A stretch of 64,000 nucleotides of DNA from Centroscyllium fabricii (taxonomy: Eukaryota), in contig JBNRSN020000008.1 of the NCBI GenBank assembly GCA_051313645.2, positions 29,450,001 to 29,514,000 on the forward strand, written 5' to 3'. Below the pieces are notes generated by a model. The model worked only from the letters and a program-made list of their open reading frames with translations. It was not told where the DNA came from and made no database searches. Positions within the stretch are counted from its first letter, which is position 1. Each line of letters starts with the position of its first letter. Made by a program: the position numbers and the translations under genes. Positions 9,112-63,596 of this stretch are shown in pieces.

Positions 9112-9365
9112 AGCACAGAAACACAGAAGATAGGAGCAAGAGTAGGCCATTCGGCCCTTCGAGCCTGCTCCGCCATTTTGATGAGATCATGGCTGATCAT
9201 CCAAACACAGCACCCCCCTCCTACCCTCTCCCCATATCCCCAGACACCCCCAACTCTGAGAACTATATCTCTCCCACATACTCATGGGCAATTTTTAGTA
9301 TCTCCAATTCACCTAACCTGCCTGTCTTTGGGTGATGGGAAGAAACCGGAGTACCCAGAGGAAAC
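9112..9365 (-). mobile_element. V-SINE (3' half), split by the LTR element; 5' half at 23226-23317
   Basis: CR1-derived tail plus V-domain GGAGTACCCAGAGGAAAC|CTACACGAACACGGGG rejoined across the TSD. Confidence 0.8.
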
Positions 9366-11125
9366 TGTAAGGTCGCAATATTCCAAGTCAAAAACGGATT
9401 CACAAAGACCAGAAACGAAGGGATGGAGTAAACATGTTTATTTTATTGAACAATAGCAGAAAGGACAGGCTGCGGCCTGATCAGAGAAAAAGGGGCCTCC
9501 AAGATGGCCGCCGGACCACATGACATATCGGCCAGTATCAAAACGAAACTAAAACCCAATTCGGAAAAAGCCCGCGAAAAAGCCTAGACATGGAGGCGCT
9601 GAAAGCCAGTAAGTAAGTAACCAGCCCCTCAGAAACCGCTTAGCCCCACAAAGAAATGCACCCAGTTAAATAAGCCCCCGATAAAGCTGCAAATATTGAA
9701 ATTACTGGCCCGTTTAGCCAGACACAAGATTTACACAGCAAGCCCGCATTAAAGCGATTTGCACCCTTACAAAACAATGGGAGCTCTAACAGAGAGGTTA
9801 GGGTGCCATCAAACCATTACCAGCAGGCTTGGCTGGACAAAGGAATGCAGTAACCGTTTTTCTAAACACAATACCTGCCTAATGGGAAAGACATTAGCTT
9901 CATAGTATAACTGGCAGGACATTCTACAATTCTCTCCTCTTCTTCTGTGGGCTCTCTGGAGAGGGCTCTCTTCACATCTCTGACTCTCTGGAAGAGGGGG
10001 TCTCTCAAATATCTCGCAGCGTTGAAATCTCTCTTGGGAAAGAGCTCTTGGAGAAGGCTCTTGGAGGCGACCTCTTGAAGCGGTGAGGTCTCTGAATAGA
10101 ACTTTTGAGCTTTAGCAGTAACTTTGGGTGGGCTCTCCGTCTCGAAGACTCCAGTTCAGCTTTCTGGGTGCAGGTTCTGGCAGGACGGTCGAGTTGGGTC
10201 AGGGCAGCATCGCATCGGAAGACCATTGTTGGTGAGGTAGTCGGTGGTTGGGCCCGTATAAAGAAGCGAAGCAAGGCACTGGAGACTGGCATCCGAAGCA
10301 GGGGCCAAAGTGAGTGAGTTAGAAAAGACTTGTTACAGTTGGCTCGAGAGAAACTATCATTCGAAGAGTGGGGAAAGCAAGTAGGCTAGCAGCCCGTTAC
10401 AGTTCGGCTTGAGAGGGCAGGATCGGCATACCCCAGGGTTCGGTTCAGCCAGGGAGACGGTGCGGTTGGTGCGAGGAGGTAGAGCAGCCTCGAGGAACCC
10501 GTCCGGGACCACCCCGAGCAGGAGCGGCCACCGCCCAGAGGGAGAAGACAACAAGTGGACTCCCGAATCTTCCACAGCCACGTGACGACCGACGCTGCAG
10601 CCGAAGAGACGAAGGACTTCGTAGCAGACCCCGAGTATTACCGAGTGGTGAGCATGTGCCCCGATCCTACACACCTGGACATAGCTAGGCAATAGAGGGA
10701 AGGGTGGTTTATTTGGGGTGTATTTGTAGAGTCATTGCCCCGATTTACGATGTGCCGTGCGTTCCCCATCCTATAAGTTACTTGTGTATGTTCATATATA
10801 TATCTATTTGGGAAACAATTGTTTGTGTATCATACTGTGTTGGTCCGATGAAATACAATCTAACTGCTGTACATATACCTTGCGTTGTAATAAAATCATC
10901 CAACTTTGCAACTTTTATTCGAGTCCAAGTCTGAGTCCAATCGGTATCCATCTCGTCTCTCTCTCTCTTTTCCTGCACCTAAGTCCAGCGTCTAGAACCG
11001 TAAGGGTGAGCGATTCGAACCGCTCGCGGGGGAGGAGGTTATTGCGCGAGGCCTAGCGGACTGCTAGCGCAAGGCAGTAACGGACCCCAAGTCGTAAATA
11101 AAACATACGGTGCACGCTCCTTACA
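9366..11125 (+). repeat. 5' LTR (1760 bp)
   Basis: Near-identical to 18578-18901 plus 21770-23221; TGTAAGG/CCTTACA inverted termini; candidate TATA about 9906 and AATAAA about 10889. Confidence 0.95.
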
Positions 11126-11127
11126 GA

Positions 11128-13050
11128 ATGGCGACCGCGGCAGGACGTTGGCAGCAGGAGAGAGATATATTGGACTCAGCCTTGAATAAAAGGAGCGTAA
11201 TGGAGGAAAGGATCGCTGATTATGTGTTCAGTAAAGTGAACTTAACAAAGCAGTGGATTGGGGACCTGTTGGCAGACAAACGTCCACTGGATGCAGCTAT
11301 CCATTGGACGGGTAGCAAGGGGCATAAGAAAGCAGTAGAAAAAGCAGTATGGCTCATGTGCTATAAAAAGCAGGTCCAGCTTTCGGACCAGGTGATTGCG
11401 GCGCAGACCGCGCAGATCAAGGGGTTAGTCCTAGAAGTGGAGGAAAAGGTCTCAGGGGGGCAGCGGTTAATCACCGCGCTAGAGGCTCTGAATAATGAGC
11501 GCCAGGTGAAGACCAACCGCCATGAGGCTAGGGTCGAGCTCCTAGAAAGACAAGTAGTGGAGGCCATGTCAAGTGAAGGGAAGCTCAGGGAAAGGTGCGT
11601 CCGCCTAAGTGGCCAATTGAAGGCACAGGAGGAGGATTTACTGGAGATGAGGGCAGCGTACAAAATGTCCCTCGAGACCAAATATGAGGACGCTGATCAT
11701 AGCGCCTGCCTTAAGGAGATTCAGGACCTTAGGGAGGCCCTGAACAGGTCAAATGGCCTGGTGTGCCTCATCGACCCATCGGTGGGCGAGGTACAAGTAG
11801 CTCAGGGACCCCCGAAGCCAAAGCTAAGGAGGAGGGCGCCGGAGGCACCAGCCCCCGCGCTCCCCGCGCGATCACCCCACTATACGCAAGCATGGGAGAA
11901 AGGGGACAGAGAGGAGGTGGCGGCGAAGGTTCCCAGAATGGGGGATCCAGACCCGGCACCCATGTGTCCGGTTCGAGAGATGAGGCGGGGTCCCGACACT
12001 GCGGCTGGGGATCCCGGGCCCATCTTGAATGAGGTCATAGTGCCCCATAGCTCGCAACAAATAAGGAGCATGATAGGGCATTTCAGGAAGCTGTCCGCAG
12101 CAGGCGATCCGTCCCTGCATTTTAGAGAGGTCGAACAGGCCGCAGCGGTAAACGGCTGTGACGAAGGGGAGCAAGCCAGGATGTTGCTTTACTCCTTAGA
12201 TAGCTCTATCCTTCAGTGTCTCTCCGACGAGAGCAAGAGGGGGGATAAGGGCTATGACGACCTACGGGACGAGGTCTTAGAAGTGCTGGGAATGGACGAT
12301 GAAGGTCCGTTTGTAAGGCTGGGTAGGACCGTGCAGATGGAGGGAGAACCCCCACGGGTTTTCGCCGGGAGGCTGTGGCCTGTGTATCAGCGCAGCTGCC
12401 CAGATGTACCTGCACGGGCTGTATTGCGCGATGCCGGGAGAGCCCAATGGCTCCGGTGTATCGTTGCCAACAGCCTACCCGCCGTTAGAGAGCAGGCTAA
12501 GGTGTGGTTTGACCCCACCGATGCTCAAACCACAGAGGAGACGGTCCTCAACCGACTCACGGTTGGGTACAAAAATACGAGAAGTTCGGTGATGCACTGC
12601 GATAAGGGGAAGGTGTATGCGACTAACGCAGACGCCCCAGCGCAGAGAGAGTGGTATCAGGAGGGGGGCAACCCGGGGCAGTCTACATGTCATAGATGCG
12701 GGAAGGCAGGCCACTGGCGCAGAGACTGTAGAGCCCCGTGGAGGGAGGTCAAGGAAAGAGCTCCCGCAGCCCCAGCCCGAGCACCCACTCCCACAGGAGG
12801 TGCCGGCGCTACTCTAAGTCCCGAAACAATTGAGTCCATGCTGGGAGCCATGAAGTTTTATATGACTTCCCAGGGGAAGGTAGCCCCAACCCGAGCACCC
12901 GCTCCCACAGGAGGTGCCGGGGCGACTTTAAGTCCCGAAACGATAGAGTCCACGCTGGGGGCCATGAAGTTATATATGGCTTCCCAGGGGAAGGCAGCGG
13001 TGGCCACAGGTTCCGCAGGCACCGCAGCCCCTTACGTGGAAACCCAATGA
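11128..13050 (+). CDS. gag: Gag polyprotein (coiled-coil N-terminus, capsid-like region, CCHC zinc knuckle)
   Basis: Uninterrupted 640-codon ORF from ATG 11128; CHRCGKAGHWRRDC knuckle; duplicated C-terminal APTGGAGATLSPETIES..LGAMK motif. Confidence 0.88.
   Translation: MATAAGRWQQERDILDSALNKRSVMEERIADYVFSKVNLTKQWIGDLLADKRPLDAAIHWTGSKGHKKAVEKAVWLMCYKKQVQLSDQVIAAQTAQIKGLVLEVEEKVSGGQRLITALEALNNERQVKTNRHEARVELLERQVVEAMSSEGKLRERCVRLSGQLKAQEEDLLEMRAAYKMSLETKYEDADHSACLKEIQDLREALNRSNGLVCLIDPSVGEVQVAQGPPKPKLRRRAPEAPAPALPARSPHYTQAWEKGDREEVAAKVPRMGDPDPAPMCPVREMRRGPDTAAGDPGPILNEVIVPHSSQQIRSMIGHFRKLSAAGDPSLHFREVEQAAAVNGCDEGEQARMLLYSLDSSILQCLSDESKRGDKGYDDLRDEVLEVLGMDDEGPFVRLGRTVQMEGEPPRVFAGRLWPVYQRSCPDVPARAVLRDAGRAQWLRCIVANSLPAVREQAKVWFDPTDAQTTEETVLNRLTVGYKNTRSSVMHCDKGKVYATNADAPAQREWYQEGGNPGQSTCHRCGKAGHWRRDCRAPWREVKERAPAAPARAPTPTGGAGATLSPETIESMLGAMKFYMTSQGKVAPTRAPAPTGGAGATLSPETIESTLGAMKLYMASQGKAAVATGSAGTAAPYVETQ
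11129..11146 (+). promoter_or_regulatory. Primer-binding site, tRNA-Arg(TCG)
   Basis: TGGCGACCGCGGCAGGAC is the complement of the vertebrate tRNA-Arg(TCG) 3' end (...GTCCTGCCGCGGTCG-CCA, from recall), 3 nt after the LTR. Confidence 0.85.
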
Positions 13051-16000
13051 CTAAGACCCGCGCTGCCCATTTACCTGTGTCCGCTCCGTTATGATGCATG
13101 GAGGAGACCTCTGGTGGAAATGGAGGTGGAGAGACAGGAGGGGAATTATCTGTTGGATACGGGGGCCTCATGCACCGTGATCCACACAGAGAAGCCGTTT
13201 AATTCCCCAATGTACACCGGAGTCCCTTTTGCATTAGCAGGGTTTACGGGCAAGGAACAGGGGGGCGCGCGCTCTAGGCCACTTTCCATTCAGTTAGGAG
13301 CGCTCCACACCACTTGGGAGTGCATCCTACTGAAATGGGAAGAAGGAGGTGGCAGAGGTATAGTAGGAGCAGATTTTCTGGGAGCACACGGGATCATGAT
13401 CGACCTAAGGAACCACTGTTTATGGGCAGCCGAAAGTGGAAGAGGTGAAGTTGTGGTCATAGGGGAGGAAGAAGAGAAGGGGACCCTATGCACCATGAAG
13501 CCGTCCGGAGGTTACGACCTCGAAAGTTTGTCCAAGGGGGTTCCGGCCGACATGCAGGCGGCCGTAACGTGGAATATAAACGCCTTTGCGATCCACAAGC
13601 ACGATTGCGGGAGGGTCTTAGGGTTTGAGGTTAGCGTACAGGGGGATCCCATGTCCCGACCCCAGAAACAGTATAACTTCCCTAAAGAAGCTGAGCCCGA
13701 TCTGGAGACAGCGATGTCTTCACTGGTGCAGCAGGGCGTGTTGAGGCCGATAGCCACCCATGTGAACTCTTCGTTGTGGCCAGTAAGGAAGCCGGACAAC
13801 TCATGGAGAGCCATGGTGGATTATCGGGTCCTCAACAGTAACATCACCGCCTGCGCGCCCACGGTGGCAGCAGTTGCCGACCTGATCGGGAGTATTCCCG
13901 CTTCCGCCACGGTGTTTACGGTGTTGGATATCTCCAACGGGTTTTGGTCCATCCCGCTGCGGAGGGAGGATCAGTACAAGTTTGCCTTTACGTTTAAAGG
14001 GCAGCAGTACACGTGGAATTGTTTGCCGCAAGGCTTCCACAACAGCCCCAGTATTTTCAACCAGTGTATGGCAGGGAGTTTAAAGGAGTTTAGCCAGCCC
14101 AATCAAATAGTGCAGTACGTGGACGACTTACTTCTGTTCACGGACACGAGGGATGAGCACTTGCCACTGCTAGGCGAGCTGCTGGAATTACTGGCTAGGA
14201 AGGGTTTTAAAATAAACCCGAAGAAGGCACGGATTGGCCAGACAGAAGTAAAGTTTCTGGGTCTGACCATCCGCGCGGGGGAAAGGGCCATAGATAAGGC
14301 CAGGAGGGAGTCGGTACAGGAGCTACCGATCCCGACCACCGTAAAGGGTGAGGTCCTTTTTGGGATTGACCGGGTATTGCAGAGACTTCATTGAGGACTA
14401 TGCAGCCACAGCAGCTCCGCTGCTCCGACTCTTACATAAGGGAGTTGGGTGGTCATGGGATGAGGGTTGCCAGGCGGCGTTTGAAAAGTTGAAGAGGGAC
14501 TTGCAAACCGCGCCAGCCCTGGGGGCCATAGAGGGGGGGAAGGAGTTTTCCTTGGAGGTAGCAGCCGGCGAGGACAGCTTGAGCGCGGTGCTGCTCCAAG
14601 AGCGGCACGGCAAGCTGCGACCGGTGGTGTATTCCTCAAGGGTACTCACGGAGGTGGAGAGGGGGTTCTCCAACTGCGAACGGCATCTTTTAGCCACGCA
14701 TTGGGCCGTGAAGAGATCATTAATCTTCACGGGAACCTCTCCCATTACTCTCCTCACCCACCACACACCCACCAGGATGCTCCTGAATGGGAGGATAAAG
14801 GATGGGACCGTGAGCAGCGCGAGAATTGCGCGCTGGACTCTTCTTTTGTCCCAAATGGATTTAAAGGTGGAGGGGTTGTGCGAGCCTAAGCTCGCAGCAA
14901 ATTTGATGTACCCCGGAACAACCCATCGGTGTTCCGTGGAGGGGGTATGGGAGGTGAACATAGGTCTGCGAGCCGGGATACATCCCACGGGCCGCGAGAT
15001 CTATGTTGATGGTTCCAGCACGGTGGTGGCTGGCGAACAACTCGCGGGCTGCGGGATTTTTGACCCTACGGCAGACATTGCCCTGGCGGTTAAGCTTCCC
15101 CGCACCATGAGCGCGCAGCAGGCCGAGCTGTCGGCGGTGGCGTACGTGGTAACCCACCCCGAGACCTTCCCAACCCCGTACACAATTTGTTCAGATAGCA
15201 TGTTTACGTGCAACTCGTGCACGGAGTATCTGGCCATATGGTCACGTCGCGGGTACACTTCCGCGGACGGGCGACCATTAACGGTAAAGCCCTTGTTGGA
15301 GAAGATCCTAGCAGCAGTAGGGGAAGAAGGGGAGATCTTCATCCACAAGGTGAAGGCTCACTCTTCCACGGAACCACGTGGGGGAGGCAATCAGCGGGCG
15401 GATGCGCTGGCCAAGGAGGGTGCTCGTGAAGGCACTTTCTGGGACCCCTACAGGTCCGGACCCGTGGCAGCGATCCGGGATAAGGAGGGGAACCGCCCCA
15501 GGGTTCCCCTGCCTTTGGATCTCAAAACGGTCCAAAACCAGGATCCCGTTTTAAAAGCTGTCCTCAAAGCTATTAGTGAGGACAAGCAGGTAGAGGGCCC
15601 ATACAATAGGGCGACCCTCTCCGTTAAGGAAGGAATGTTGTTCAGAGAGGAACAGTGGGTTGTGCCGCAGCAGCACAGGAGGGAATTTCTCCAATTGGCC
15701 CACGAGGGTCCAGGAGCAGGGCACCCCGGGCCAGAGGTTACGTGGCAACGGGTGGAGCAGGCAGGATGGTGGCCGGGACTCAGGGAAGATGCCCGCGAGT
15801 TCTGCGCCAGCTGCTTGGTGTGCGCTGCGAACAACCCAGACCCCCAAAGGAGGAAAGCGCAGTTGGGGCACGTCAGGAGGGTGGAGGGACCGTGGCAGTC
15901 GATACAAGTCGACTATATAGGGCCCCTACCCACCGCCCAGGGAGGCTATAAATATTGTCTCGTCCTGGTGGACGTGTTCTCCAAATGGGTAGAAGCTTTC

Positions 16001-17704
16001 CCCTGTAGGACGGCTACGGCCTTAGGTACTGCCAGGATTTTGGTCCGGGAGGTGTTCTCACGGTGGGGACTTCCCCGTTTTGTGGAGTCCGACCAGGGGA
16101 GTCACTTCACCGGCCAAGTCATGCAGAACACCCTCATGCTCCTAGGCATTGAAGGGAAATGGCACGTAGCGCACAACCCCCAGTCGTCAGGGATTGTGGA
16201 ACGCATGAACCGTACACTTAAGGAACGGTTGAGGAAAGAGGCGATGGGCTCGCCCCAGAAATGGGCGGAGATCCTGCCTTTAATCCTCATGGGGATCAGG
16301 GCCAGCCAGTCGAAAAGTACGGGATATTCCCCGCACGAGCTAATGACTGGAAGGGCCATGCATACCCCCACTCATGTACTAGCTCCGGTGCTCATGGAAG
16401 GCCAGCTCGAAGAGGTAAAGAAGGACAGGTTTGCCCAAAATCTGTTCGAGCACCTAAAGCGAGTACATGAGCAGGCAGCAGGGAACATGGGCAGACAGCA
16501 TCAGGGGAACAAGCTGTTGCTAGAGCCCCGAAGAACGCAAGAATGGGAAGTGGGAGACCTGGTCATGGTGAGGAACTATGCCCGGGTAGGGAGTTTAGAG
16601 CCACTGTACATGGGGCCCTACAGCATTGTAGATAAGGCAAGCCCCATGGTTTATGCGGTAAAGGTGCCCCGGCGCACAAAGTGGTTTCATATTAACCAGT
16701 GTAAAAGGTATAAGTCGGGCACGCAGGGGTCGACCACAGGGGCAAGCCCTGTGAGTAGGAACGCCCAGCCAAGTGCAGGACCACAGGTCGCGCAGGCAGG
16801 TAAAGTAGCCTGCGTGAAAGGAGAGGCCCCGATGGAGGAGAGGAGGGTCTCTCGTGCTGTGTGGGATTCAGATGGGGAGGAGCTGGACCAACACGACCAG
16901 GTGTTGGATCCGATGGACCTACACGACCAGGTGTTGGACCCGATTGGCCAACCCGACCAAGGGTTGGACCTGATTGACCTACGCGACCCAGTGCTAGAGT
17001 CAATCACAGGGGAGGAGGAGGGGTCGGAGGACGGGGGTTCCGTTCTCGACTCGAATGCCGAAGAGGTAGGGATAGCGGGCGGAGACTCACCACCTGAGGA
17101 GATAGGTGAGGTGAGGTCAGAAGCCACAAGAGATCCCAGTCCCGGGGAAGCGAAGCTGAAGGAGGGAGGGTCGGTGCTGGCAGCTGTGAAGGAGTCACAG
17201 GCTGCAGCACGATCCGGCCCGGCCTTCAGTTCGTCGATGAGGCGAGAGGAGGGAACGTCGATGCTGACAGATGTGACGGGGTCACAGGCTGCAGCACGGC
17301 CTGGCCCGGTCCTCAGGTCGTCGGCCCAGGGGGCTCTCTGTCCCAGGGAAGCGAAGCTGGAGGAAGAGGGGTTGGTGCTGGCAGCTGTGAGGGAGTCACA
17401 GGCTGCAGCACAACCTGGCTCGGTCCTCAGTTCGTCGGCCCAGGGGGCAGTACCTAAAGGCACCCTCCGTCGATCGGAAAGGGTACCCCAGCACAGGAAA
17501 GCTTGGCCAGAACCGTCATATGCCCTCAGGTACCGGAACAGTACAGCGGGAAAAAGCCCCCGCAAAAGGACAATTATCTACCCCCGACAAGCAGCACCAG
17601 GCTGCGGAGAATCAAAAGCAGCGACAGGCTGCGGGGAACCAAAGGGAAGGGTCAGCAATGCACCGCCACGGGGAGCGGCCCGCTACGACCCTGACAGGGA
17701 ATAG
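13051..17704 (+). pseudogene. pol: Pro-Pol: protease, RT, degenerate RNase H (tether), RNase H, integrase; one frameshift near 14348
   Basis: LLDTGAS; LPQGFHNSP, YVDD; tether FSLEVAAG..LSAVLLQ..RPVVYSSR; RNase H IYVDGS, SAQQAEL, CSDS, KVKAHS, GNQRADALAK; IN HHCC, VDYIG/SDQG/IVERMN, GPY. In frame with gag across a single TGA. Confidence 0.92.
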
Positions 17705-18565
17705 GTAGGCCGCCCGGGAGAGGCGGCACTGTATATAATGAGAAATAAGTTTTGGTAGTGTTAAGGGAGTAGCCCGAATTAAGTTCTGAATTTTGTTACT
17801 GGTGTGACGTTTAGCATAAAGGTGAAGGGGAGTGTTTAGGTAATATGGGATCTGTCCAGGAGGTGTGCACATCTCATCACAGCCAGGCGCTCTTGGGAGG
17901 CCGGCAACCCCTTTGTTTAATTACAGAACCCAGAGAGGCGGGGATTCTGATGACGCTTGCGGTCATCAGAGATGGACTGGCCTGTCGGGGCCACACCGGG
18001 GAGTAAGGAGCAGATGCCCAGGACGGCTGGGAACGGACCCAATGGAGCATCCCAGCACGTCAGAATCTGCTTGTGGAGAGACTTGGTTTTCTGTGCCCCG
18101 GATTGAGACCATCGCACCTAGGACCAGCGCCATCATCGGTAGAAGGACTTTGTTTCATTGAGGGATAGGAAGATCCCAGCGAGCCGATGGTGGTGCCTGC
18201 GGAAGACCGCCAGAACGCTGTAAAGACTTTGGGACAAATGGGGGGATTGATGAGGGGATATATGTGTGTGTTTTATATTTTTCGGATGGTTGTGTGATGC
18301 CTCTTTCAAATAATAAACGATATGAACAGGTGGAGACGAAGGCATCGGCCTGGCAGACGTGGAAGGAACCAGGAGGTGTAAGGAATGGTTGTGTAAATAT
18401 ACGTTGCCCAGGGTAAAGGCAATGCGAGGGTGATCAAAGGGAATGGGAACCGCATGGGTCATGGGGCAAGAGTTAACTTAGGTAACCAGGAGAGTTGAGG
18501 TGTGGAGAATCGGGAATCTTGCTCAACCTTTATTAATTGATTCGCTAAGCGGGGTTATGCTAATC

Positions 18566-18577
18566 AACAGGAGGGAC
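18566..18577 (+). promoter_or_regulatory. Polypurine tract
   Basis: AACAGGAGGGAC immediately before the 3' LTR TGT at 18578. Confidence 0.7.
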
Positions 18578-18901
18578 TGTAAGGTCGCAATATTCCAAGT
18601 CAAAAACGGATTCACAAAGACCAGAAACGAAGGGATGGAGTAAACATGTTTCTTTTATTGAACAATAGCAGAAAGGACAGGCTGCAGCCTGATCAGAGAA
18701 AAAGGGGCCTCCAAGATGGCCGCCGGACCACATGACATATCGGCCAGTATCAAAACGAAACTAAAACCCAATTCGGAAAAAGCCCGCAAAAAAGCCTAGA
18801 CATGGAGGCGCTGAAAGCCAGTAAGTAAGTAACCAGCCCCTCAGAAACCGCTTAGCCCCACAAAGAAATGCACCCAGTTAAATAAGCACCCGATAAAGCT
18901 G

Positions 18902-21765
18902 TGTAACCTGGGTCTGAAACCCAGAGTCAGGGAGAATCTCCCTAAAGGGTTAAAAGTCTAGGGATCCAGTGGTCTGAGGTCAGGTGACCTCTTCGGTGCC
19001 AGTTTGTCTGGAAGTTCAGATCACATGGGGTGGTTGTCCAGGTGCGAGTATGGACAATGTTTCAGACAGGCTGGGCTGCCATGGAAACCAGCACTCGGCT
19101 CCGGCCAGTCTGTGTGATTGCTTTGCGATAGGCTGGCTAAAAGTGGGGTGAGTTACTGGAGGGTGGAGCCAGGACAGGATAAAAGGCTGGACACGCCTAG
19201 AGACAGGATTATTAAGATTGAGCTGGAGAGAAGATTGAGCTGGAGATAAGATAGAGCGCAGGAAGCAAGAAGGACAGAGGCAGATCCAAGAGCCGTCGTT
19301 GTCTCCCTTGAGATGAGGAGACTGTAGTGTACGGTCCTCATTGTCAAGCCCTATTCGGACAGTCGTAAGTAATAACTTCTGAGAAAAGGGCTTGGGGAAC
19401 AAGGTGTAAGGGTGCTAAAGTGGATGCCTTGCCATTGTAAATTGCTGATTGAAATGTGTTCTGTAAGGGTGCTAAAGCGAGTGCCTTGCCATTGTAAATT
19501 GCTGATTGAAATGTGTTCTGGAAGGGTGCTAGAGCGAGTGCCTTGCCATTGTAAAGTTCTGATTGAAGTGTGTTCTTGGGAGTGGTTGTGAGCTGAATGA
19601 ATGTGTAAATGATTTGTTGTATGACATTAATGCTGCTTTCTATTTGTGTATGCAGTTGCTAGTTGTTTAACACTGTTTGTATTTAAACTCTATCTCCCAT
19701 CCCTGTTATTAAAGTTTGTAAATATAAATTTTGTCTCTGATTCATCTCTCTCAAGTTAAAGGGGTTACATTTGGGTGGAGGTCACAGAGTTCTACACGTG
19801 GGGTACGTTAAGAACCTACGGGGTAATTGGTATTAACCTACCCGAACCCCATTCTCAGTAAAGGAGAAGGGGGGGGGCCAATCGTAAAAAGGGTTACATT
19901 TGGGGGCTCGTTTCCGGGATACTGTGACTTCCAGTTTCATACACTAGTGGAGTGAACCCACTGTTGCCGAGAGAGAGATGGACGTGAGCACGGTTACTTT
20001 GTGGTGTAGTCATGAGGACATGACTAGGTTTGGTAAGGGGGGAGTGTAACCTGGGTCTGAAACCCAGAGTCAGGGAGAATCTCCCTAAAGGGTTAAAAGT
20101 CTAGGGATCCAGTGGTCTGAGGTCAGGTGACCTCTTCGGTGCCAGTTTGTCTGGAAGTTCAGATCACATGGGGTGGTTGTCCAGGTGCGAGTATGGACAA
20201 TGTTTCAGACAGGCTGGGCTGCCATGGAAACCAGCACTCGGCTCCGGCCAGTCTGTGTGATTGCTCTGCGATAGGCTGGCTAAAAGTGGGGTGAGTTACT
20301 GGAGGGTGGAGCCAGGACAGGATAAAAGGCTGGACACGCCTAGAGACAGGATTATTAAGATTGAGCTGGAGAGAAGATTGAGCTGGAGATAAGATAGAGC
20401 GCAGGAGGAAGAGAGAAGATTGAGCAGGAGGTTAGATTGAGAAGATCCGGGGAAGATCCAGAAGGAGGTTAGATTGAGAAGATCCGGGAAAGATCCAGAG
20501 AAGCCATAAGAGAGGCAGTTCCAAGAGCCGTCGTTGTTTCCCTTGGGATGAGTAGGCTGTAGTGTACGGTACTCATTGCCAAGCCCTGTTCGGACAGTCG
20601 TGAGTGGCGGCTACTGAGAGAAGGGCTTGGGGAAGACGAGGTTGCAGGAAGCAGAGGGTGGAGAAGTGTGTTTGATGCCCACTGCTGGAAGATGCTGGAG
20701 GCTTTCGTGTTAAAAGGACTGAGAGACAGTCCCAAGAGCCGTCGTTGTTTCCCTTGAGATGAGTAGGCTGTAGTGTACGGTACTCATTGCCAAGCCCTGT
20801 TCGGACAGTCGTGAGTGGCGGCTACTGAGAGAAGGGCTTGGGGAAGACGAGGTTGCAGGAAACAGAGGGTGGAGAAGTGTGTTTGATGCCCATTGCTGGA
20901 AGAGGCTGGAGGCTTTCGTGTTAAAAGGACTGAGAGACAGTTCCAAGAGCCGTCGTTGTTTCTCTTGAGATGAGTAGGCTGTAGTGTACGGTACTCATTG
21001 TCAAGCCCTATTCGGACAGTCGTGAGTGGCGGCTACTGAGAGAAGGGCTTGGGGAAGACGAGGTTGCAGGAAGCAGAGGGTGGAGAGCTGTGTGCGACGC
21101 CCACTGCTGGAAGATGCTGGAAGCTTTCGTGTTAAAAGGACAGAGGCAGATCCAAGAGCCGTCGTTGTCTCCCTTGAGATGAGGAGACTGTAGTGTACGG
21201 TCCTCATTGTCAAGCCCTATTCGGACAGTCGTAAGTAATAACTTCTGAGAAAAGGGCTTGGGGAACAAGGTGTAAGGGTGCTAAAGTGGATGCCTTGCCA
21301 TTGTAAATTGCTGATTGAAATGTGTTCTGTAAGGGTGCTAAAGCGAGTGCCTTGCCATTGTAAATTGCTGATTGAAATGTGTTCTGGAAGGGTGCTAGAG
21401 CGAGTGCCTTGCCATTGTAAAGTTCTAATTGAAGTGTGTTCTTGGGAGTGGTTGTGAGCTGAATGAATGTGTAAATGATTTGTTGTATGACATTAATGCT
21501 GCTTTCTATTTGTGTATGCAGTTGCTAGTTGTTTAACACTGTTTGTATTTAAACTCTATCTCCCATCCCTGTTATTAAAGTTTGTAAATATAAATTTTGT
21601 CTCTGATTCATCTCTCTCAAGTTAAAGGGGTTACATTTGGGTGGAGGTCACAGAGTTCTACACGTGGGGTACGTTAAGAACCTACGGGGTAATTGGTATT
21701 AACCTACCCGAACCCCATTCTCAGTAAAGGAGAAGGGGGGGGGGGCAATCGTAAAAAGGGTTACA
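18902..21765 (+). mobile_element. Non-autonomous LTR element (TRIM-like): LTR 18902-19898, 146-bp internal segment, LTR 20045-21765
   Basis: TGTAACC...GGTTACA LTRs; 4-bp TSD GCTG; tRNA-Pro-like PBS TGGGGGCTCGT(TT)CCGGGAT at 19901-19920; PPT AAGGGGGGAG at 20035-20044. Confidence 0.93.
20521..21270 (+). repeat. ~211-bp tandem repeat (3 full units plus a partial) inside the nested 3' LTR
   Basis: CCAAGAGCCGTCGTTGT recurs at 20521, 20732, 20943, 21152; followed by three copies of a ~57-bp repeat present in both LTRs. Confidence 0.92.
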
Positions 21766-23317
21766 GCTGCAAATATTGAAATTACTGGCCCGTTTAGCCA
21801 GACACAAGATTTACACAGCAAGCCCGCATTAAAGCGATTTGCACCCTTACAAAACAATGGGAGCTCTAACAGAGAGGTTAGGGTGCCATCAAACCATTAC
21901 CAGCAGGCTTGGCTGGACAAAGGAATGCAGTAACCGTTTTTCTAAACACAATACCTGCCTAATGGGAAAGACATTAGCTTCATAGTATAACTGGCAGGAC
22001 ATTCTACAATTCTCTCCTCTTCTTCTGTGGGCTCTCTGGAGAGGGCTCTCTTCACATCTCTGACTCTCTGGAAGAGGGGGTCTCTCGAATATCTCGCAGC
22101 GTTGAAATCTCTCTTGGGAAAGAGCTCTTGGAGAAGGCTCTTGGAAGCGACCTCTTGAAGCGGTGAGGTCTCTGAATAGAACTTTTGAGCTTTAGCAGTA
22201 ACTTTGGGTGGGCTCTCCGTCTCGAAGACTCCAGTTCAGCTTTCTGGGTGCAGGGCAAGCAGGGTGCAGGTTCTGGCAGGACGGTCGAGTTGGGTCAGGG
22301 CAGCATCGCATCGGAAGACCATTGTTGGTGAGGTAGTCGGTGGTTGGGCCCGTATAAAGAAGCGAAGCAAGGCACTGGAGACTGGCATCCGAAGCAGGGG
22401 CCAAAGTGAGTGAGTTAGAAAAGACTTGTTACAGTTGGCTCGAGAGAAACTATCATTCGAAGAGTGGGGAAAGCAAGTAGGCTAGCAGCCCGTTACAGTT
22501 CGGCTTGAGAGGGCAGGATCGGCATACCCCAGGGTCCGGTTCAGCCAGGGAGACGGTGCAGTTGGTGCGAGGAGGTAGAGCAGCCTCGAGGAACCCGTCC
22601 GGGACCAGCCCGAGCAGGAGCGGCCACCGCCCAGAGGGAGAAGACAACAAGTGGACTCCCGAATCTTCCACAGCCACGTGACGACCGACGCTGCAGCCGA
22701 AGAGACGAAGGACTTCGTAGCAGACCCCGAGTATTACCGAGTGGTGAGCATGTGCCCCAATCCTACACACCTGGACATAGCTAGGCAATAGAGGGAAGGG
22801 TGGTTTATTTGGGGTGTATTTGTAGAGTCATTGCCCCGATTTACGATGTGCCGTGCGTTCCCCATCCTATAAGTTACTTGTGTATGTTCATATATATATC
22901 TATTTGGGAAACAATTGTTTGTGTATCATACTGTGTTGGTCCGATGAAATACAATCTAACTGCTGTACATATACCTTGCGTTGTAATAAAATCATCCAAA
23001 TTTGCAACTTTTATTCGAGTCCAAGTCTGAGTCCAATCGGTATCCATCTCGTCTCTCTCTCTCTTTTCCTGCACCTAAGTCCAGCATCTAGAACCGTAAG
23101 GGTGAGCGATTCGAACCGCTCGCGGGGGAGGAGGTTATTGCGCGAGGCCTAGCGGACTGCTAGCGCAAGGCAGTAACGGACCCCAAGTCGTAAATAAAAC
23201 ATACGGCGCACGCTCCTTACAAAACCTACACGAACACGGGGCGAACATGCGAACTCCATGCAGAGATTCCTGGGCCAAGCAGGATTTGAACCCAGGAGCT
23301 CCTTATTGCAAGGCAGC

Positions 23318-42037: not shown

Positions 42038-42294
42038 TGTAGCGTAGTCGCTAGCTCAATTAAAAGGCGACTCGTAAGTACCGAAATACAAGGCTTTTAA
42101 TTGATAAAGAATGGAGCTAGTCTCCTAACAAGTTCACATACAAGAATGAAGGGGCTGGGTCTGGCCACACCTTATATCGGTGTCCCCACCTGGGGAGGAG
42201 TCGAGGGTGTGGCTGACCTGGCTCCCAGCAGTACAATGGCACTTATACAAAGGTAGCCATATAAGGCAATGGTAACCATATAAGGGTTACCACA
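42038..42294 (-). mobile_element. Solo LTR of a related Gypsy family, inverted inside the 5' LTR
   Basis: Reverse complement begins TGTGGTAACC and ends CTACA; 5-bp TSD AATAT; shares CCAGGTCAGCCACACC..CTCCTCCCCAGGT block with the host LTR. Confidence 0.88.
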
Positions 42295-42559
42295 AATATT
42301 GGTGCCAATATTGCCACTGTACATAGTAAGATGTTGCGACACTGTCATGGGGCCAGGTCAGCCACACCTCTAACTCCTCCCCCAGGTGAGGCCCTTTATA
42401 GGTGAGGACTGACCGCACCAGTTCATTCTGTACCTGTTGTTCGTTCGGAGTATAGCTCCTAAGTAAGTCAATAAAAGCCTGTAGTTAAGATCACTACTCG
42501 TCTTTGGCTTTATTGAGTTAATTGACGATACGTCAATTTTATTGACTTAAAAATTCGAA

Positions 42560-45500
42560 ATGGAGAGCGGTGCGGTAAAACCAGAGAAGCTGGACATCAG
42601 TCCACAGGACCCAGCCGCCGCCACTACCTTCGAACACTGGTTCGGTCTCCTGGAGGCCTACATGGACGCCGCCAAGGCTACAACCGACGGGAACAAGCTA
42701 CAGGTTCTCCGGTCCAAGATCTCCAGCAGAGTATTCTCCCTCATCCGGGACGCCAAAACGTACCCAGTGGCAGTGGAGAAACTGCGAAAATGCTACGAGC
42801 GCCCGGTCCACTCTGTCTACGCCAGACATGTGCTCGCGACCAGACCACAACTACTGGGTGAGTCGAATGAACAGTTCGAGCAGGCACACCAAGCCCTGGT
42901 ACGGGTCTGTGGCTGCCAACCACGGACAGCAGAGGAGGAGGCGAATCTCCTCGTCCGTGATGCCTACGTAACAGGGCTAAGGTGCGTTGAGGCCCACCAG
43001 CGGCTGCTAGAGAAAGACTGTTTAACCCTAGAGGAGGCGATCTCCATCTCGAACTCGGTGGAAGGTGCACGCAACAAGCTACAGGCGTACAGCGGCACAA
43101 ACCCACAGGTCTACGACGCGTGGGCTGCACCACAACGGGCCCAGGGCTGGGCAGCACCACAACGGGCCGAGACCCCCACGATGGCAGCGACAGCCGCAAA
43201 GACACAGGCGGAAAGAAAGTGCTACTTCTGCGGCCAGGGATTACATCCACGGGCGAGATGCCCAGCGAAGACCGCGACCTGCGAGAGGTGCTCCAAGAAA
43301 GGACACTATGCAAAGGCCTGCAGATCAGCCCCGGCGCCCAACTCCAGGTACAACAGCGCAGCCTGCGAAAGCTCCGCCAGGCCTCAGGTAAGCTGCAATT
43401 GCAGCGCGATCCAGCTTGAGAAAAAGCGCACCCATCTCCCACCCTGATGCGGGAAAGGCCGGCTGCACCCACGGCACGCCAAGCTCAGCCACGGCCGGAC
43501 AGGCGCGACCCCCCAACGCCAGCAGCACGCCCAGTGCGGCCCGCTGTGTGCGAATCACGGGCACCGCCAACCCAGCCACCGCGGTGCGCTGCGTGCGAAC
43601 CACGGGCACCGCCAACCCAGGAACCGCGGCCCACTGCGTGCGAACCACGGGTGCCGCCAGCGCGCTCACAGTGGTCAGCCATGTGCGAACCACGGGCGCC
43701 GCCATCTTGCCTCCAACGGCCCACCATGTGCGACCCCTCGGCGCCGCCATCTTGTCTCCAGCGGCCCGCCATGTGCGAACCACGGGCGCCGCCATCTTGT
43801 GTTCAGCCCCAACCAGCAGGGGGCCCACACACACAAACACACACTTCAGCCTCAGCCATACCAAACGTCGACCAGGCTAGGCCGCACACCCTATCGAACT
43901 CGATTATGCCGATTAAAGTTAACCGCCATACTACCAATTGCCTGTTCGACACTGGAAGCACAGAGAGCTTCATCCACCCTGATACAGCGCGGTGCTATGG
44001 ACTGCAGATCCTGCCCACAAGCTACCAAGTCTCCCTTGCTTCACAGTCCCACACCGCGGATGTCACCGGCTACTGCTCCGTCACGCTCACAGTCAAGGGT
44101 TGCGTGTTCCGTAACTTCAGGTTGTACATCCTCAAGCAACTGTGCGCCCCAACCTTACTGGGACTGGATTTCCAGTGCCACCTCAAGAGCGTGACAATGG
44201 AGTTCGGCGGGACCCCGCCCCCCCTCATCGTCAGTAGCCGGGACAGTCCCTTCCCAAAGCGGAGCCCGGCCTGCGGCCTCTCCACCCTGAAAATCGACCC
44301 CCCCTCAATGTTCGCCAATCTCGACCCCAACTGCAAACCTATTGCTACCAAGAGTAGGCGGTACAGTGTGGGGGATCGGACATTTATCAGGTCGGAAGTC
44401 GGGCGTATGCTGAAGGAGGGGATAATTGAAGCCAGCACCAGCCCCTGGCGGGCCCAAGTTGTAGTGGTGAAGACTGGCGAGAAACAGCGGCTGGTGATCG
44501 ATTACAGCCAGAATATTAACCGCTGCACCGGGCTCGATGCCTACCCCCTCCCCCGCATCTCGGACATGGTCAACCAGATCGCCCAATATAAGGTGTTCTC
44601 CACAATCGACCTTAAGTCGGCGTATCACCAACTCCCGATCCGGAAAGCCGACCGCCCGTACACTGCCTTCGAGGCGAACGGTCGGCTCTACCACTTCCTC
44701 CGGGTCCCTTTCGGCGTGACCAACGGAGTGTCAGTGTTCCAACGGGAGATGGACCGCATGGTTGACCAGAACGGGTTGCGGGCCACCTTCCCCTACCTGG
44801 ACAACGTGACTATCTGCGGCCATGACCAGCAGGACCACGATGCCAATCTGGCCAAATTCCTTGACACGGCGGAACGGCTGGATCTAACGTATAACAAGGA
44901 CAAATGTGTCTTTAATACAGATCGGCTCGCCATCCTCGGATACGTGGTGGAGAATGAGGTCCTCGGCCCCGACCCACAGCGTATGCGCCCATTGCAGGAA
45001 CTGACCCTTTCTCACAACCCCAAAGCCTTGAGGAGATGCCTTGGATTTTTCTCCTATTACGCACAATGGGTCCCACAGTTCGTGGACAAGGCTAGACCAC
45101 TCCTCAAGGCTGCCGCCTTCCCCCCCTCGGTAAAAGCCCAAACGCCATTCGCCCGGATAAAGGAAGACATCATCAAGGCGACCATGCACGCCGTTGATGA
45201 ATCCATCCCTTTCCAGGTGGAGAGTGACGCTTCGGACTTTGCCCTTGCCGCCACCCTGAATCAGGCAGGCAGGCCCGTAGCGTTTTTCTCCCGCACCTTA
45301 CAGGGACCTGAAATTCGGCACTCTGCAGTGGAAAAGGAGGCCCAGGCCATCATGGAGGCCATGCGCTATTGGCGTCATTACCTGGCCGGTAAGCGTTTTA
45401 CCCTACTCACCGACCAACGGTCGGTTGCGTTTATGTTTAATAATAAACAAAAGGGTAAGATCAAGAATGATAAGATCCTGCGGTGGCGGATCGAGCTCTC

Positions 45501-45674
45501 GACTTACGAGTACGACATTCTTTACCGACCAGGCAAACTCAATGAACCCCCGGACGCACTGTCCAGGGGAACGTGCGCCGGTGCCCAGCTAGACCGGCTG
45601 AAGGACCTCCACGATCGCTTCTGTCACCCGGGTGTCACCAGACTCGCCCACTTCGTTAGATCCCGTAGCCTCCC
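42560..45674 (+). pseudogene. Gypsy gag-pol copy A (frameshift near 43415; truncated in the integrase zinc finger by the middle LTR)
   Basis: Two Cys/His knuckles (CYFCGQGLHPRARC, CERCSKKGHYAKAC), LFDTGS, RVPFG, YLDN, RNase H ESDAS/EKE/LTD. Confidence 0.92.
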
Positions 45675-45976
45675 TGTGGTAACCGTATTGTACATAGCTT
45701 TACCACTGTAATATTGTCGCCAATATTGGCTGTATATGTTACACTGTTGGCAACACTGTCATGGAGCCAGGTCAGCCACACCTCTAACTCCTCCCCCAGG
45801 TGAGGCCCTTTATAGGTGAGGACTGACCGGGCTCCCTCATTCTGTTCTGGATGTTCGTTCGGAGTGTAGCTCCAAAGTTAGTTAATAAAAGCCTGTAGTT
45901 TAAGGTCACTACTCGTCGAAGTCTTTTATTAAGAGAATTGACGATACGTCAATTTTATTAACTAAGAAAATTTTAA

Positions 45977-48900
45977 ATGGAGCGCGGTGCGGTAAAGCCA
46001 GAGAAGCTGGACACCAGAACACAGGACCCAGCCGCTGCCACCATGTTCGAACACTGGTTCGGTCTCCTGGAGGCCTATATGGACGCCGCCAAGGCTACAA
46101 CCGACGGGAACAAACTGCAAGTTCTCCGGTCTAGGATCTCCAGCCGAGTATTCTCCCTCATCCGAGATGCCAAAACCTACCCAGCGGCAGTGGAAAAACT
46201 GCGGAAATGCTACGAGCGCCCGGTCCACTCGGTCTACGCCAGACATGTGCTCGCGACCAGACCACAACTACCGGGTGAGCCAAATGAACAATTTGAACAA
46301 GCACTCCAAGCCCTGGTACGGGTCTGTGGCTGCCAAGCACGGACAGCAGAGGAAGAGGCGAATCTCCTCATCCGTGATGCCTACGTAACAGGCCTGAGGT
46401 GCGTTGAAGCCCGCCAGCGGCTGCTTGAGAAAGACTCTTTGACCTTAGAGGAGGCGATCTCTATATCAAACTCTGTAGAAGGGGCACGCAACAAGCTGCA
46501 GGCGTACAGCGGCACAAACCCGCAGGTCTACGACGCGTGGGCCGCGCCACAACGGGCCAAGGCCTGGGCAGCACCACAACGGGTCGAGACCCCCACGATG
46601 GCTGCGACAGCCGCAAAGGCAGACAAACGGTGCTACTTCTGCGGTCAGGGACTGCATCCACGAGCGAGATGCCCAGCGAGGACCGCGACCTGTGAGAGGT
46701 GCTCCAAAAAGGGACACTACGCGAAGGCCTGCAGATCAGCACCAGCAGCGCCCAACTCCAGGTACAACAGCGCAGCCTGTGAAAGCTCCGCCAGACCTCA
46801 GGTAAGCTGCAATAGCAGCGCGATCCAGCAACAGTCCGGGGGTAGAAGAAAAGCGCCCCCATCTCCCACTCTGATGCGGCAAAGGCCGGCTGCACCCACG
46901 GCACGCCAAGCTCAGCCACAGCCAGCCATGCGCGATCCCCCAACGCCAGAAGCACACCCAGCGCAGCCCGCTGCGTGCGAATCACGGGCACCGCCAACCC
47001 AGCCACCGCGGCTCGCTGCGTGCGAACCACGGGCACCGCCAACCCAGCCACCGTGGCACGCTGCGTGCGAACCACGGGCGACGCCAGCGCGCTCACAGCG
47101 GTCAGCCGCGTGCGAACCACGGGCGTCGCCATCTTGTCTCCAGCGGCCCACCATGTGCGACCCCTCGGCGCCGCCATCTTGTCTCCAGCGGCCCGCCATG
47201 TGCAACCCCTCGGCGCCACCACCTTGTCTCCAGCGCCCCGCCATGGGCGAACCACGGGCGCCGCCATCTTGTGTACAGCCCCAACCAGCAGGGGGCCCCC
47301 ACACACAAAGGCACACTTCGGCCTCAGCCATATCTAAAGTTGACCAGGCTAGGCCACACAACCTATCGAACTCGATCATGCCGATCAAAATCAACGGCCA
47401 CGTTACTAATTGCCTGTTCGACACTGGAAGCACAGAGAGCTTCATCCACCCTGATACAGCGCAGCGCTACGGACTGCAGATCCTGCCCACGCGCTACCAA
47501 GTCTCCCTTGCTTCACAGTCCCACACCGCGGACGTCACCGGCTAATGCTCCGTCACGCTCACAGTCAAGAGTTGTGTGTACCGTAACTTTAAGTTGTACA
47601 CCCTCAAGCAGTTGTGTGCCCCAGCCTTACTAGATCTGGATTTCCAGTGCCAACTCAAGAGCGTGACAATGGAGTTCAGCAGGACCTTGCCCCCCCTCAC
47701 CGTCAGTAGCCGGGACAGTCCCTTCCCAAAGCGGAGCCCGGCCTGCGGCCTCTCCACCCTGAAATTCGACCCCCCCTCACTGTTCGCCAACCTCGACCCC
47801 AACTGCAAGCCTATTGCAACTAAGAGTCGGCGGTACAGTGTGGGGGATCGCACGTTTATCAGGTCGGAGGTCGGGCGTATGCTGAAGGAGGGGATAATTG
47901 AAGCCAGCACCAGCCCCTGGCGGGCCCAGGTAGTAGTGGTGAAGACTGGCGAGAAACAGCGGCTGGTTATTGACTACAGCCAGACTATTAACCGCTACAC
48001 CGGGCTCGATGCCTACCCCCTCCCCCGCATCTCGGACATGGTCAACCAGATCGCCCAATATAAGGTGTTCTCCATGATCGACCTTAAGTCGGTGTATCAC
48101 CAACTCCCGATCCGGAAAGCCGACCTCCCGTACACCGCCTTCGAGGCGAACGGTCGGCTCTACCACTTCCTCCGGGTCCCCTTCGGCGTGACCAACGGAG
48201 TGTCGGTATTCCAGCGGGAGATGGACCGCATGGTTGACCAGAACGGGTTGCGGGCCACCTTCCCTTACCTGGACAACGTGACCATCTGCGGCCATGACCA
48301 GCAGGACCACAATGCCAATCTGGCCAAATTCCTTGACACGGCGGAAAAGCTGGACCTTACGTATAACAAAGACAAATGTGTCTTTAATACAGACCGGCTC
48401 GCCATCCTCGGATACGTGGTGGAGAATGGGGTCCTCGGCCCCGACCCACAGCGTATGCGCCCCCTACAAGAACTGCCCCTTCCTCGCAACCCCAATGCCT
48501 TGAGGAGATGCCTAGGATTTTTCTCCTATTATGCACAATGGGTCCCACAGTTCGCGGACAAGGCTAGACCACTCCTCAAGGCTGCCGTCTTCCCCCTCTC
48601 GGTAGAAGCCCAAACGGCATTCGCCCGGATAAAGGAAGACATTATCAAGGCGACCATGCACGCCGTTGATGAATCTATCACCTTCCAGGTGGAGAGTGAT
48701 GCTTCGGACATTGCCCTTGCCGCCACCCTGAATCAGGCAGGCAGGCCCGTAGCGTTTTTCTCCCGCACCTTACAGGGACCCGAAATTCGCCACTCTGCAG
48801 TGGAAAAGGAGGCCCAGGCCATCGTGGAGGCCGTGCGCTACTGGCGTCATTACCTGGCCGGTAAGTGTTTTACCCTTCTCACCGACCAACCGTCGGTGGC

Positions 48901-50209
48901 GTTTATGTTTAATAATAAACAGACGGGTAAGATCAAGAATGATAAGATCCTGCGGTGGCGGATCGAGCTCTCGACTTACGAGTATGACATTCTTTACCGA
49001 CCAGGTAAACTCAATGAACCCCCGGACGCACTGTCCAGGGGAACGTGCGCCAGTGCCCAGCTAGACCGGCTGAAGGATCTCCACGATCGCCTCTGTCACC
49101 CGGGTGTCACCAGGCTCGCCCACTTCATTAGATCCAGTAGCCTCCCCTACTCCATCACGGAGATCAAGGCTATGACCCGAGAGTGCCCTGTTTGCGCCGA
49201 GTGCAAACCCCAATTTTTCCGGCCAGACACGGTGCACCTCATTAAGGCCACCCGCCCCTTTGAACGTCTAAGCGTGGACTTCAAAGGCCCTCTCCCCACC
49301 ACCGACCGCATGTCATACTTCCTCACGGTCGTAGATGAGTTCTCCCGCTTCCCGTTCGCCTTCCCCTGCTCAGATATGATGAGCGCAACAGTGATAAAAC
49401 ACTTCACCACGCTGTTCGCCATTTTCGGTCTCCCCAGCTACATCCTTAGCGACCGGGGGTCATCGTTCATGAGCGATGAACTGCGTCAGTTTCTGCTCCA
49501 GAAAGGGGTTGCCTCGAGCAGAACGACCAGTTATAACCCCCGGGGGAACGGCCAGGTAGAAAGGGAGAATGGGATCATCTGGAAGGCGGTCACCCTGGCC
49601 CTGAAGTCCAGAGGCCTTCCAGTGTCCCATTGGCAGGCAGTCCTCCCCGATGCGCTGCACTCGATACGCTCTCTGCTATGTATGGCCACCAACGCCACCC
49701 CTCATGATTTAATGTTTTCCTTTCCCAGGAAGTCGACTTCGGGGACAGCTCTTCCACCGTGGCTCACGACGCCGGGGCCGGTCTTCCTTAGAAAACACAT
49801 CCGCGGCCACAAGACCGACCCCCTGGTAGACAAGGTGCAGCTCCTGCACGCCAACCCACAGTACGCATACGTGCAGTTCCCGGACGGGCGCGAGGACACC
49901 GTCTCCTTCAGGGACCTAGCGCCCGCCGGGAGCACCACAGCAGAGCCACTGTTCGGGCAGCAGCCCGCCCAGCCACGATATTTCGAACACCCCCTGCACC
50001 TACAGTGGCTACCAAGGTATCCAGAGCCCCAGCCATGGCCAGCCCAAGACCACCATTCGGATGGCTCGGATCAACCACTACCACCAGCATCTGAAGTTTC
50101 GGCACCAGCGCCGCTGTCACCACCACCGGACCCGAGCGGGACGGACCACACGGAACTTCTGCCAGAGCCCCGGTGTCCTCCAGACAGACGCGAGCGCCGG
50201 ACAAGTTGA
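45977..50209 (+). pseudogene. Gypsy single-ORF gag-pol copy B, complete except one premature TAA (47543-47545; TAC in copy A)
   Basis: ORFs 45977 and 47576 are in the same frame; gag-PR-RT(YLDN)-RH-IN (HDRLCH..CPVC; VDFKG/SDRG/QVERENG). Confidence 0.93.
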
Positions 50210-50542
50210 TAATGAACTGCTCTGTCCATTCACCCCGCCGGACTTAAATTTTCAAGAAGGGGTGAATATGGTAACCATATATATGTATTAATTTCCACTG
50301 TAATATTGGTGCCAATATTGCCACTGTACATAGTAAGATGTTGCGACACTGTCGTGGGGCCAGGTCAGCCACACCTCTAACTGCTCCCCCAGGTGAGGCC
50401 CTTTATAGATGAGGACTGACCGGACCCGTTCATTCTGTACCTGTTGTTCGTTCGGAGTATAGCTCCTAAGTAAGTCAATAAAAGCCTGTAGTTAAGGTCA
50501 CTGCTCGTCTTTGGCTTTATTGAGTTAATTGACGATACGTCA

Positions 50543-62899: not shown

Positions 62900-63596
62900 A
62901 ATGATCTGTTGTATCGTACACAGTCTGCCATACGTGCACTTGTTCAGCCATTGCTGCCCCTTGCCTTTAGTGCTCCTAGCAGAGTTACAAAGCACGGCAC
63001 ATGACGTTAATGCTCAGCGCAGAACTATTGTTCAAATAGATTTTTAAAATGTCCTTCGGTGCAGTTTAAAAAAAAACCAATTCATCTTGATTAAAATTGC
63101 ATTTGGTCCTGTTGCTTCACCGACTTCAAATCAGACGTTGACAATCGCTTGGGATCTGTCTGATGAATAATATTCTTCTCATAATCCTCCTGCAAATCCT
63201 TTCTATTCACAGAATGTCTCTTATCCCTTTGCTATTGCTTTGTCTCTATTATGTGAGCTCTGTTCCTGTTTCATTCTTCTGTTTCCGGACAGAGAAGCTT
63301 CTGTGCTTCAGAACGTACATTGCCCTTGATATTCCTTGTCATGCAATGCTGCATTTCACAAGAATATTCAACTTTCACCTCATCAGGAGCAGAAAAGATC
63401 TTTAAATTCTCGTCATATAACCATGAAATAATGAGGTGCACTTATATTCTTATCTTTCAAGTGTAAGCTCACATAGAATGAAACGGAATCATCGAACGAT
63501 ACAGCCCAGAAGGAGGCCATTTGCCCAACTAGCCTGTATATAGCCAGGTATTTGTTGTATGGCACATACTTCATTGTACTTGTGATGTGGAGAAGC

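Follow-up and report, generated by a model that had tools for sequence, protein, structure and literature searches.

An env-less endogenous retrovirus family in a shark genome

We analysed a 64,000-nucleotide stretch of the Centroscyllium fabricii genome (hereafter the window; assembly GCA_051313645.2, contig JBNRSN020000008.1, positions 29,450,001 to 29,514,000, forward strand), in which a complete long terminal repeat (LTR) element spans positions 9366-23221, flanked by a 4-bp target-site duplication. The element belongs to an endogenous retrovirus (ERV) family that lacks env and behaves as a retrotransposon. Its features are the following.

9362-9365 and 23222-23225: target-site duplication AAAC, 4 bp
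9366-11125, +: 5′ LTR, 1,760 bp, TG...CA (LTR-LTR comparison)
11128-13050, +: gag, 640 codons, one CCHC knuckle, predicted N-terminal coiled-coil region, TGA end in frame with pol
11129-11146, +: primer-binding site (PBS), complement of the 3′ end of host tRNA-Arg(TCG)
13048-13056, +: gag-pol junction TGA CTA AGA, likely a stop-codon readthrough site, the same in 20 of 20 sibling copies
13051-14394, +: first open frame of pol, protease and reverse transcriptase (RT; LPQG, YVDD), which breaks near its 3′ end
14456-14854, +: tether, an RNase H fold of Gypsy type that lacks the catalytic acids (Pfam, alignment)
14996-15424, +: second RNase H, catalytically complete (Pfam, alignment)
15662-16711, +: integrase (IN), HHCC, DDE core and GPY/SH3 (Pfam)
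16721-17704, +: pol tail of ~330 aa, acidic and low-complexity, then a basic C-terminal stretch, in frame across copies
17705-18565, +: non-coding 3′ region at the expected place of env, no env open reading frame (ORF)
18566-18576, +: polypurine tract (PPT; sequence)
18578-23221, +: 3′ LTR in two parts, 18578-18901 and 21766-23221

An initial annotation, made from the letters alone, had proposed a pol with two RNase H domains, and Pfam and alignment bear this out. The Pfam order is RT, Gypsy-type RNase H (PF17917/PF17919), a separate RNase H (PF00075, E 1.4e-19) and then integrase, with its zinc finger, core and SH3/GPY region. Aligned with Gypsy rows, the first RNase H reads EVAAG for TDAS, ERH for ERE and THH for TDH, and the second keeps D-E-D-D plus a His. 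Membership of Ty3/Gypsy (Metaviridae) was considered and rejected, as the RT falls outside the Gypsy clade and the non-catalytic first RNase H is accompanied by a second; an ordinary Gypsy element elsewhere in the window (42269-50542) has the single-RNase H pattern, unlike this pol.

Four features had escaped the initial annotation: a pol frameshift, the in-frame TGA-CTA junction from gag to pol, the pol tail and an insertion nested in the 3′ LTR. The frameshift splits pol of this copy into open frames 13051-14394 and 14345-17704, and this copy therefore cannot supply Pol itself. In the pol tail, which has no Pfam match, five of six indel classes are in frame and dN/dS is ~0.5. An antisense frame opposite it (16687-17577) was rejected as a gene: it has no Pfam match and probably arises incidentally from the low complexity of the tail.

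The two LTRs of this copy differ by 13 substitutions over 1,758 sites plus one 16-bp indel (Kimura two-parameter distance, K2P, 0.0074), the 3′ LTR being broken by the 2,864-bp nested insertion. This divergence corresponds to ~1.7 My at a mammalian rate versus 17 My if sharks evolve ten times more slowly, as assumed by Han 2015 (PMC4422223).

Absence of env across the family

Between the pol stop (17704) and the PPT, ~870 bp, all three forward frames contain stops and no env ORF is found, as initially annotated, and region 17705-18565 has no similarity to the env of snakehead retrovirus (SnRV). Only 8 of 44 indel classes in this region, compared over 33 copies, are in frame, and as most are frameshifting the region is non-coding.

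We examined two sets of sibling copies, 20 taken from the top RNase H matches and 20 picked by the LTR-PBS junction only, with one copy common to both. In the first set 19 of 20 are colinear through to the 3′ LTR and one is truncated; in the second the whole interior is readable in 17 of 20, other insertions interrupting three. From integrase to 3′ LTR, env is present in none of the 35 distinct readable siblings, nor is any ORF for a fusion-glycoprotein-like env, so that its absence is not a one-off deletion. The initial annotation had foreseen that enveloped siblings would make the element a simple deletion derivative; instead, the env-less state that it proposed holds for the family, and we class the latter as an env-less ERV and not as infectious Retroviridae. 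Seven ORFs in the four interrupted or truncated copies encode domains of long interspersed nuclear elements (LINEs), gag domains or nothing recognisable. A contig of 1,777 bp from another organism reaches from the end of integrase almost to the PPT, leaving no space for env, and in two public runs with 8,577 and 3,732 contigs over the 3′ region, which may be from the window's own species, the share entering unlike sequence rounds to 0. Genome-wide searches with PF00523 and with SnRV env gave no matches, in a strict first pass without a positive control that is uninformative.

Copy number, age and selection

Exact 24-mer matches number 8,626 for gag, 7,026 for RT and 23,201 for U5 genome-wide, and exact LTR-PBS junctions number 5,205; reversed controls gave 0, and these counts are lower bounds that duplicated haplotigs could inflate. 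Multiplied by typical lengths, the exact counts give an estimated ~100 Mb, or ~1.4% of the 7.2-Gb assembly, a share that bears on the large size of some shark genomes. The pol stretch, whole or in part, was also found in 20 public runs (11 studies, eight organisms), with no RNA run among those listed.

The copies are young: K2P lies between 0 and 0.0075 in 15 of 16 LTR pairs (at most 0.75%, in keeping with the recent activity initially proposed), four being identical, with several compared over only 500-660 bases. No LTR start could be located in one copy (L067), and the 3′ LTR is out of view in three of the PBS-picked copies. U3 identity between sub-families is 74-99%, and interiors are ~94-98% identical. 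Thousands of near-identical copies also allow the loss of env, the turnover of LTR promoters and the switching of primers to be measured.

Variants common to two or more copies give dN/dS values of 0.12 for gag, 0.04 for RT, 0.0 for the tether, 0.06 for RNase H and 0.05 for integrase. Since shared variants in gag and pol are mostly synonymous, the env-less copies themselves replicate, and the 21 synonymous and 0 non-synonymous variants of the tether indicate that it is still needed as a structure.

Among the 150 top RNase H matches, 57 lie in frames of at least 1,530 aa and 27 in frames of 1,220-1,236 aa. The readable PBS-picked interiors comprise 10 of full length (7.37-7.46 kb), two without the integrase core and five without RT and integrase core, and the breakpoints of the deleted copies are shared. 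These seven (L056, L057, L063, L064, L066, L073 and L075) represent two amplified deletion sub-families in which gag is open and the leftover parts of pol are fused in frame (frames of 556 aa and 1,225-1,235 aa). Head-to-tail tandem copies ~9.06 kb apart, which apparently share an LTR, were seen at G000:C1:34914061-34932208 and at L057.

Phylogenetic placement

To gather RT relatives, 1.84 billion representatives were searched; 158 RT domains were extracted from the matches, and trees of 95, 44 and 36 rows (94, 43 and 35 extracted domains) were built, the last with a mixture model. The rows that we take to be ERV-L-like, epsilon-like and gamma-like carry labels of our own, given by motif; SnRV, feline foamy virus and four lokiretrovirus (Loki) proteins were labelled through the motifs of a published alignment, and the trees contain no Odin row.

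In the three RT trees the element groups with canonical retroviruses (support 99/93, 100/94 and 96/86), above the foamy viruses and outside their clade in all free trees, and the tether tree agrees (97/92), so the retroviral side favoured by the initial annotation stands. Foamy viruses also differ from the element in that their Gag has no CCHC knuckle and their pol does not follow in frame. The window RT has the retroviral LPQG motif and is devoid of the PFGY and SRWP motifs common to Loki and Odin RTs. The Loki rows make up a clade of their own (100/100), and the approximately unbiased (AU) test on RT rejects its union with the element (p=0.016); the initial placement beside lokiretroviruses and Odin at the retrovirus boundary is thus not supported, for Odin on the strength of this rejection and of the absent motifs.

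Within the non-foamy group, the RT joins a weakly resolved set with SnRV, coelacanth, frog and fish-like elements, the ERV-L-like rows forming a separate supported branch in all three trees. In the tether and RT-to-IN trees the element's set falls outside a supported cluster of SnRV and class I; the latter tree is flagged for long branches and combines domains known to be shuffled (PMC7947760), and the integrase tree, flagged likewise, has no resolution at its base. Three other positions survive the AU test on RT: outside all canonical retroviruses (p=0.085), with foamy viruses (p=0.085) and with SnRV alone (p=0.166). The branch of this lineage is deep and poorly resolved. Of the boundary idea, the missing link is gone and what stays is a deep grade outside the SnRV and class I cluster. 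For rooting the tree of retroviruses, this deep, slowly evolving grade has so far been used too little.

Relatives and previous sampling

The top named Pol matches are coelacanth and frog proteins (42-43%), and SnRV (P0009, identified through its published RT) is the eighth match among the 1.84 billion representatives. The element resembles SnRV in its RT motifs, in-frame gag-pol stop, single knuckle and coiled-coil-like Gag N-terminus, and their PBSs are alike at 13 of 18 bases. The two differ in that SnRV has env, accessory ORFs and ~230 bases from PBS to gag ATG, of which env and the leader are absent here, and a TAG in place of TGA at the gag-pol stop; the LTRs here measure 1.7-1.9 kb, the tether is better preserved, and identity to SnRV over protease-RT is only 37%. 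The coelacanth and frog proteins P0002-P0005 and P0007 carry NYNRIN-like or Gypsy integrase-like annotations, and each is a full retroviral Pol from the same deep grade as the element.

The family had already been sampled, and among named sequences those closest to it come from skates. The RT fragment of le_er_ERV4 from little skate (PMC6001957, S2 Data) is identical to ours at 118 of 138 residues, ~85% by eye, and le_er_ERV4 is by this sequence comparison the same family or its sister; in the available material it is a ~0.8-kb partial sequence only, without structure, env status or copy number, and its label is absent from the extracted text of the tree figure. The two nearest tree rows, P0006 and P0026, resemble by eye an_ro_ERV1 and ca_mi_ERV1, which Xu et al. 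2018 (PMC6001957) list under clade Huo together with SnRV. The lineage is thus in part already described, an outcome that the initial annotation had named as refuting its reading: it is known as a fragment, with neighbours in a described clade. For its full structure and expansion our search found no earlier publication; subscription papers, Repbase and Dfam, outside that search, may annotate it.

Several reported elements bear on the grade. Lineage I of the elephant-shark (chimaera) CmiERVs clusters with SnRV and was defined with a downstream env required (Han 2015, PMC4422223), so that the grade around our element includes enveloped members; CmiERV lineage I is likely ca_mi_ERV1. A complete SnRV-like element without env was described from a frog transcriptome (Grau et al., PMC4131045), and a genome screen found chondrichthyan ERV RTs mostly in clade III (PMC11089739). 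High-copy anamniote ERVs with a gamma-type env mostly retain it (bioRxiv 2021.11.23.469661), and env loss is thus not required for high copy number. Another precedent is the env-less class III group ERV-L/MuERV-L, in which every copy is without env, gag-pol is intact and amplification is episodic and intracellular (PMC5930517), as in the present family; its separate supported RT branch makes the two independent cases.

A predicted Gag start inside the primer-binding site

Three spacer bases separate the 5′ LTR from the 18-base PBS, and the predicted gag ATG straddles their border, one base coming from the spacer and two from the PBS; positions -3 and +4 are occupied by A and G, respectively. 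Such a leaderless gag start within the PBS, predicted from the reading frame, is an unusual design. Yeast Ty1 has its PBS situated inside gag. Literature on a PBS overlapping the gag start yielded no earlier description of this family's arrangement.

The gag frame is open from this ATG in 16 of 20 sibling copies, and the ATG is retained at all 14 readable PBS-variant loci (17 examined, three without a readable junction). The 17 codons downstream of the PBS hold six synonymous and six non-synonymous shared variants (dN/dS ~0.2, on small numbers). The alternative start would be the second ATG, 24 codons downstream; skate Gag P0193 (NCBI), 60% identical to the window Gag, is modelled from the same Met as ours. 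A PBS variant that corresponds to another host gene for tRNA-Arg(TCG) alters the predicted Gag N-terminus to that of the skate protein model, so that two host tRNA-Arg(TCG) variants would give two predicted N-termini, MATAAG and MATTKG, the latter also present in the skate protein. A single-sequence fold of the Gag capsid region reached pLDDT 44 and was not used.

The tRNA assignment comes from a complementary 22-mer with 78 genomic matches; among four loci with this 22-mer, ARAGORN called tRNA-Arg(tcg) in one and an unassigned tRNA in one. Most of the 78 3′-end matches lie in tandem arrays at G000:C811:22.7-25.1 Mb and C922:4.0-7.9 Mb, with a spacing of ~1.9 kb on C811. Plentiful primer genes may favour this ERV family.

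At the other end of gag, a UGA-CUA context is one of stop-codon readthrough. The junction being invariant in 20 of 20 copies and SnRV having an in-frame TAG at the same place, Gag-Pol is likely made by readthrough.

Origin of the env-less state

Taken together, we consider it probable that this env-less family of thousands of young copies descends from an enveloped, SnRV-related class III retrovirus and spreads within germ-line cells; as judged from sequence comparison, an ERV-L-like secondary loss of env in the snakehead-related class III grade is most likely. In such a cycle, the LTR transcript would be translated from the ATG at the PBS, Gag would end at the TGA and occasional readthrough would yield Gag-Pol. 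Host tRNA-Arg(TCG) would prime reverse transcription, the second RNase H would cleave with the first serving as a spacer only, and the acidic-then-basic pol tail may aid nuclear entry, a guess from its composition. Integrase would then insert the copy, leaving the 4-bp duplication, and the deleted, gag-keeping sub-families would borrow Pol in trans. The family would represent a large, still-young retrovirus living as a retrotransposon in cartilaginous fish, independently of mammalian ERV-L.

Several points weigh against this reading. The clade with SnRV is weak, at 85/93 in the 95-row RT tree and a polytomy in the other two, and the tether and RT-to-IN trees join SnRV with other retroviruses and leave the element in a basal grade. 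Zero of 35 siblings with env still permits a rare enveloped parent among up to ~8% of copies, and no env remnant was found that would prove loss. The coelacanth, frog and eel relatives are represented here by proteins, and readthrough, Gag start and pol-tail function are predictions.

The family could instead be primitively env-less, a lineage that branched before the enveloped canonical retroviruses as a vertebrate counterpart of Odin. The tether does score 115 bits against a Loki protein and 43 against SnRV (integrase 213 versus 128), the element occupies the basal grade just mentioned, the RT test tolerates a place outside all canonical retroviruses, and there is no env trace either here or in the other organism's copy. 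Yet foamy viruses lie below the element in all three free RT trees, its RT has the LPQG motif, env is reported for a relative in the same grade (PMC4422223), the RT-to-IN tree has the flaws noted above, and several independent gains of env would be required; primitive absence is unlikely, and we give this scenario little credence.

Equally doubtful is the idea that the family is a defective passenger, which a rare enveloped master of the same genome mobilises and spreads from cell to cell. Mobilisation in trans does occur to judge from the shared breakpoints of the deleted copies (5 of 20 without RT and integrase core, 2 of 20 without integrase core), but no copy of 35 has env, gag and pol of the env-less copies are under strong purifying selection, and the 3′-region contigs of the two runs give no appreciable share leading into unlike sequence.

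A lokiretrovirus after env loss, or a vertebrate Odin element, is scarcely credible and largely refuted: Odin shares the tether, the new RNase H and the lack of env, database neighbours are named NYNRIN-like and the Loki integrase is CGIN1-related (PMC7947760), but the RT motifs of both and the separate Loki clade set them apart, and Odin occurs in sea anemones at 1-6 copies and Loki, with its fusion-protein-like env, was found in 0 of 3 chondrichthyan genomes (PMC9040795, PMC7947760).

A bolder proposal, to which we attach only a slim chance, is that the family, together with slowly evolving relatives in coelacanth, frogs and eels, makes up the earliest-branching grade of canonical retroviruses, with the least degraded tether, a shark and ray branch that never had env and a Gag that starts inside the PBS. 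If true, it would be a living, massively active Gypsy-retrovirus intermediate in a vertebrate, and every round of replication would copy part of a host tRNA into the start of Gag.

Other elements in the window

The insertion in the 3′ LTR is a second element, unrelated to the ERV:

18902-21765, +: miniature LTR element inserted into the 3′ LTR, with a GCTG 4-bp duplication

It resembles a terminal-repeat retrotransposon in miniature, with LTRs of 997 and 1,721 bp; leaving aside a 211-bp tandem array that has expanded, the two are 99.5% alike. Its 146-bp non-coding core holds a PBS, presumably for tRNA-Pro, which it resembles, and a PPT; the core measures 146 bp in all six copies checked, and 162 exact LTR-PBS junctions were counted genome-wide. 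The Gypsy-type element at 42269-50542 has a partly duplicated three-LTR layout and 45-bp repeats in gag. Between 5418 and 62966 the window also contains many LINE-type repeats with an 8-bp tandem unit at their end, one of which retains an RT frame at 62094-62966.

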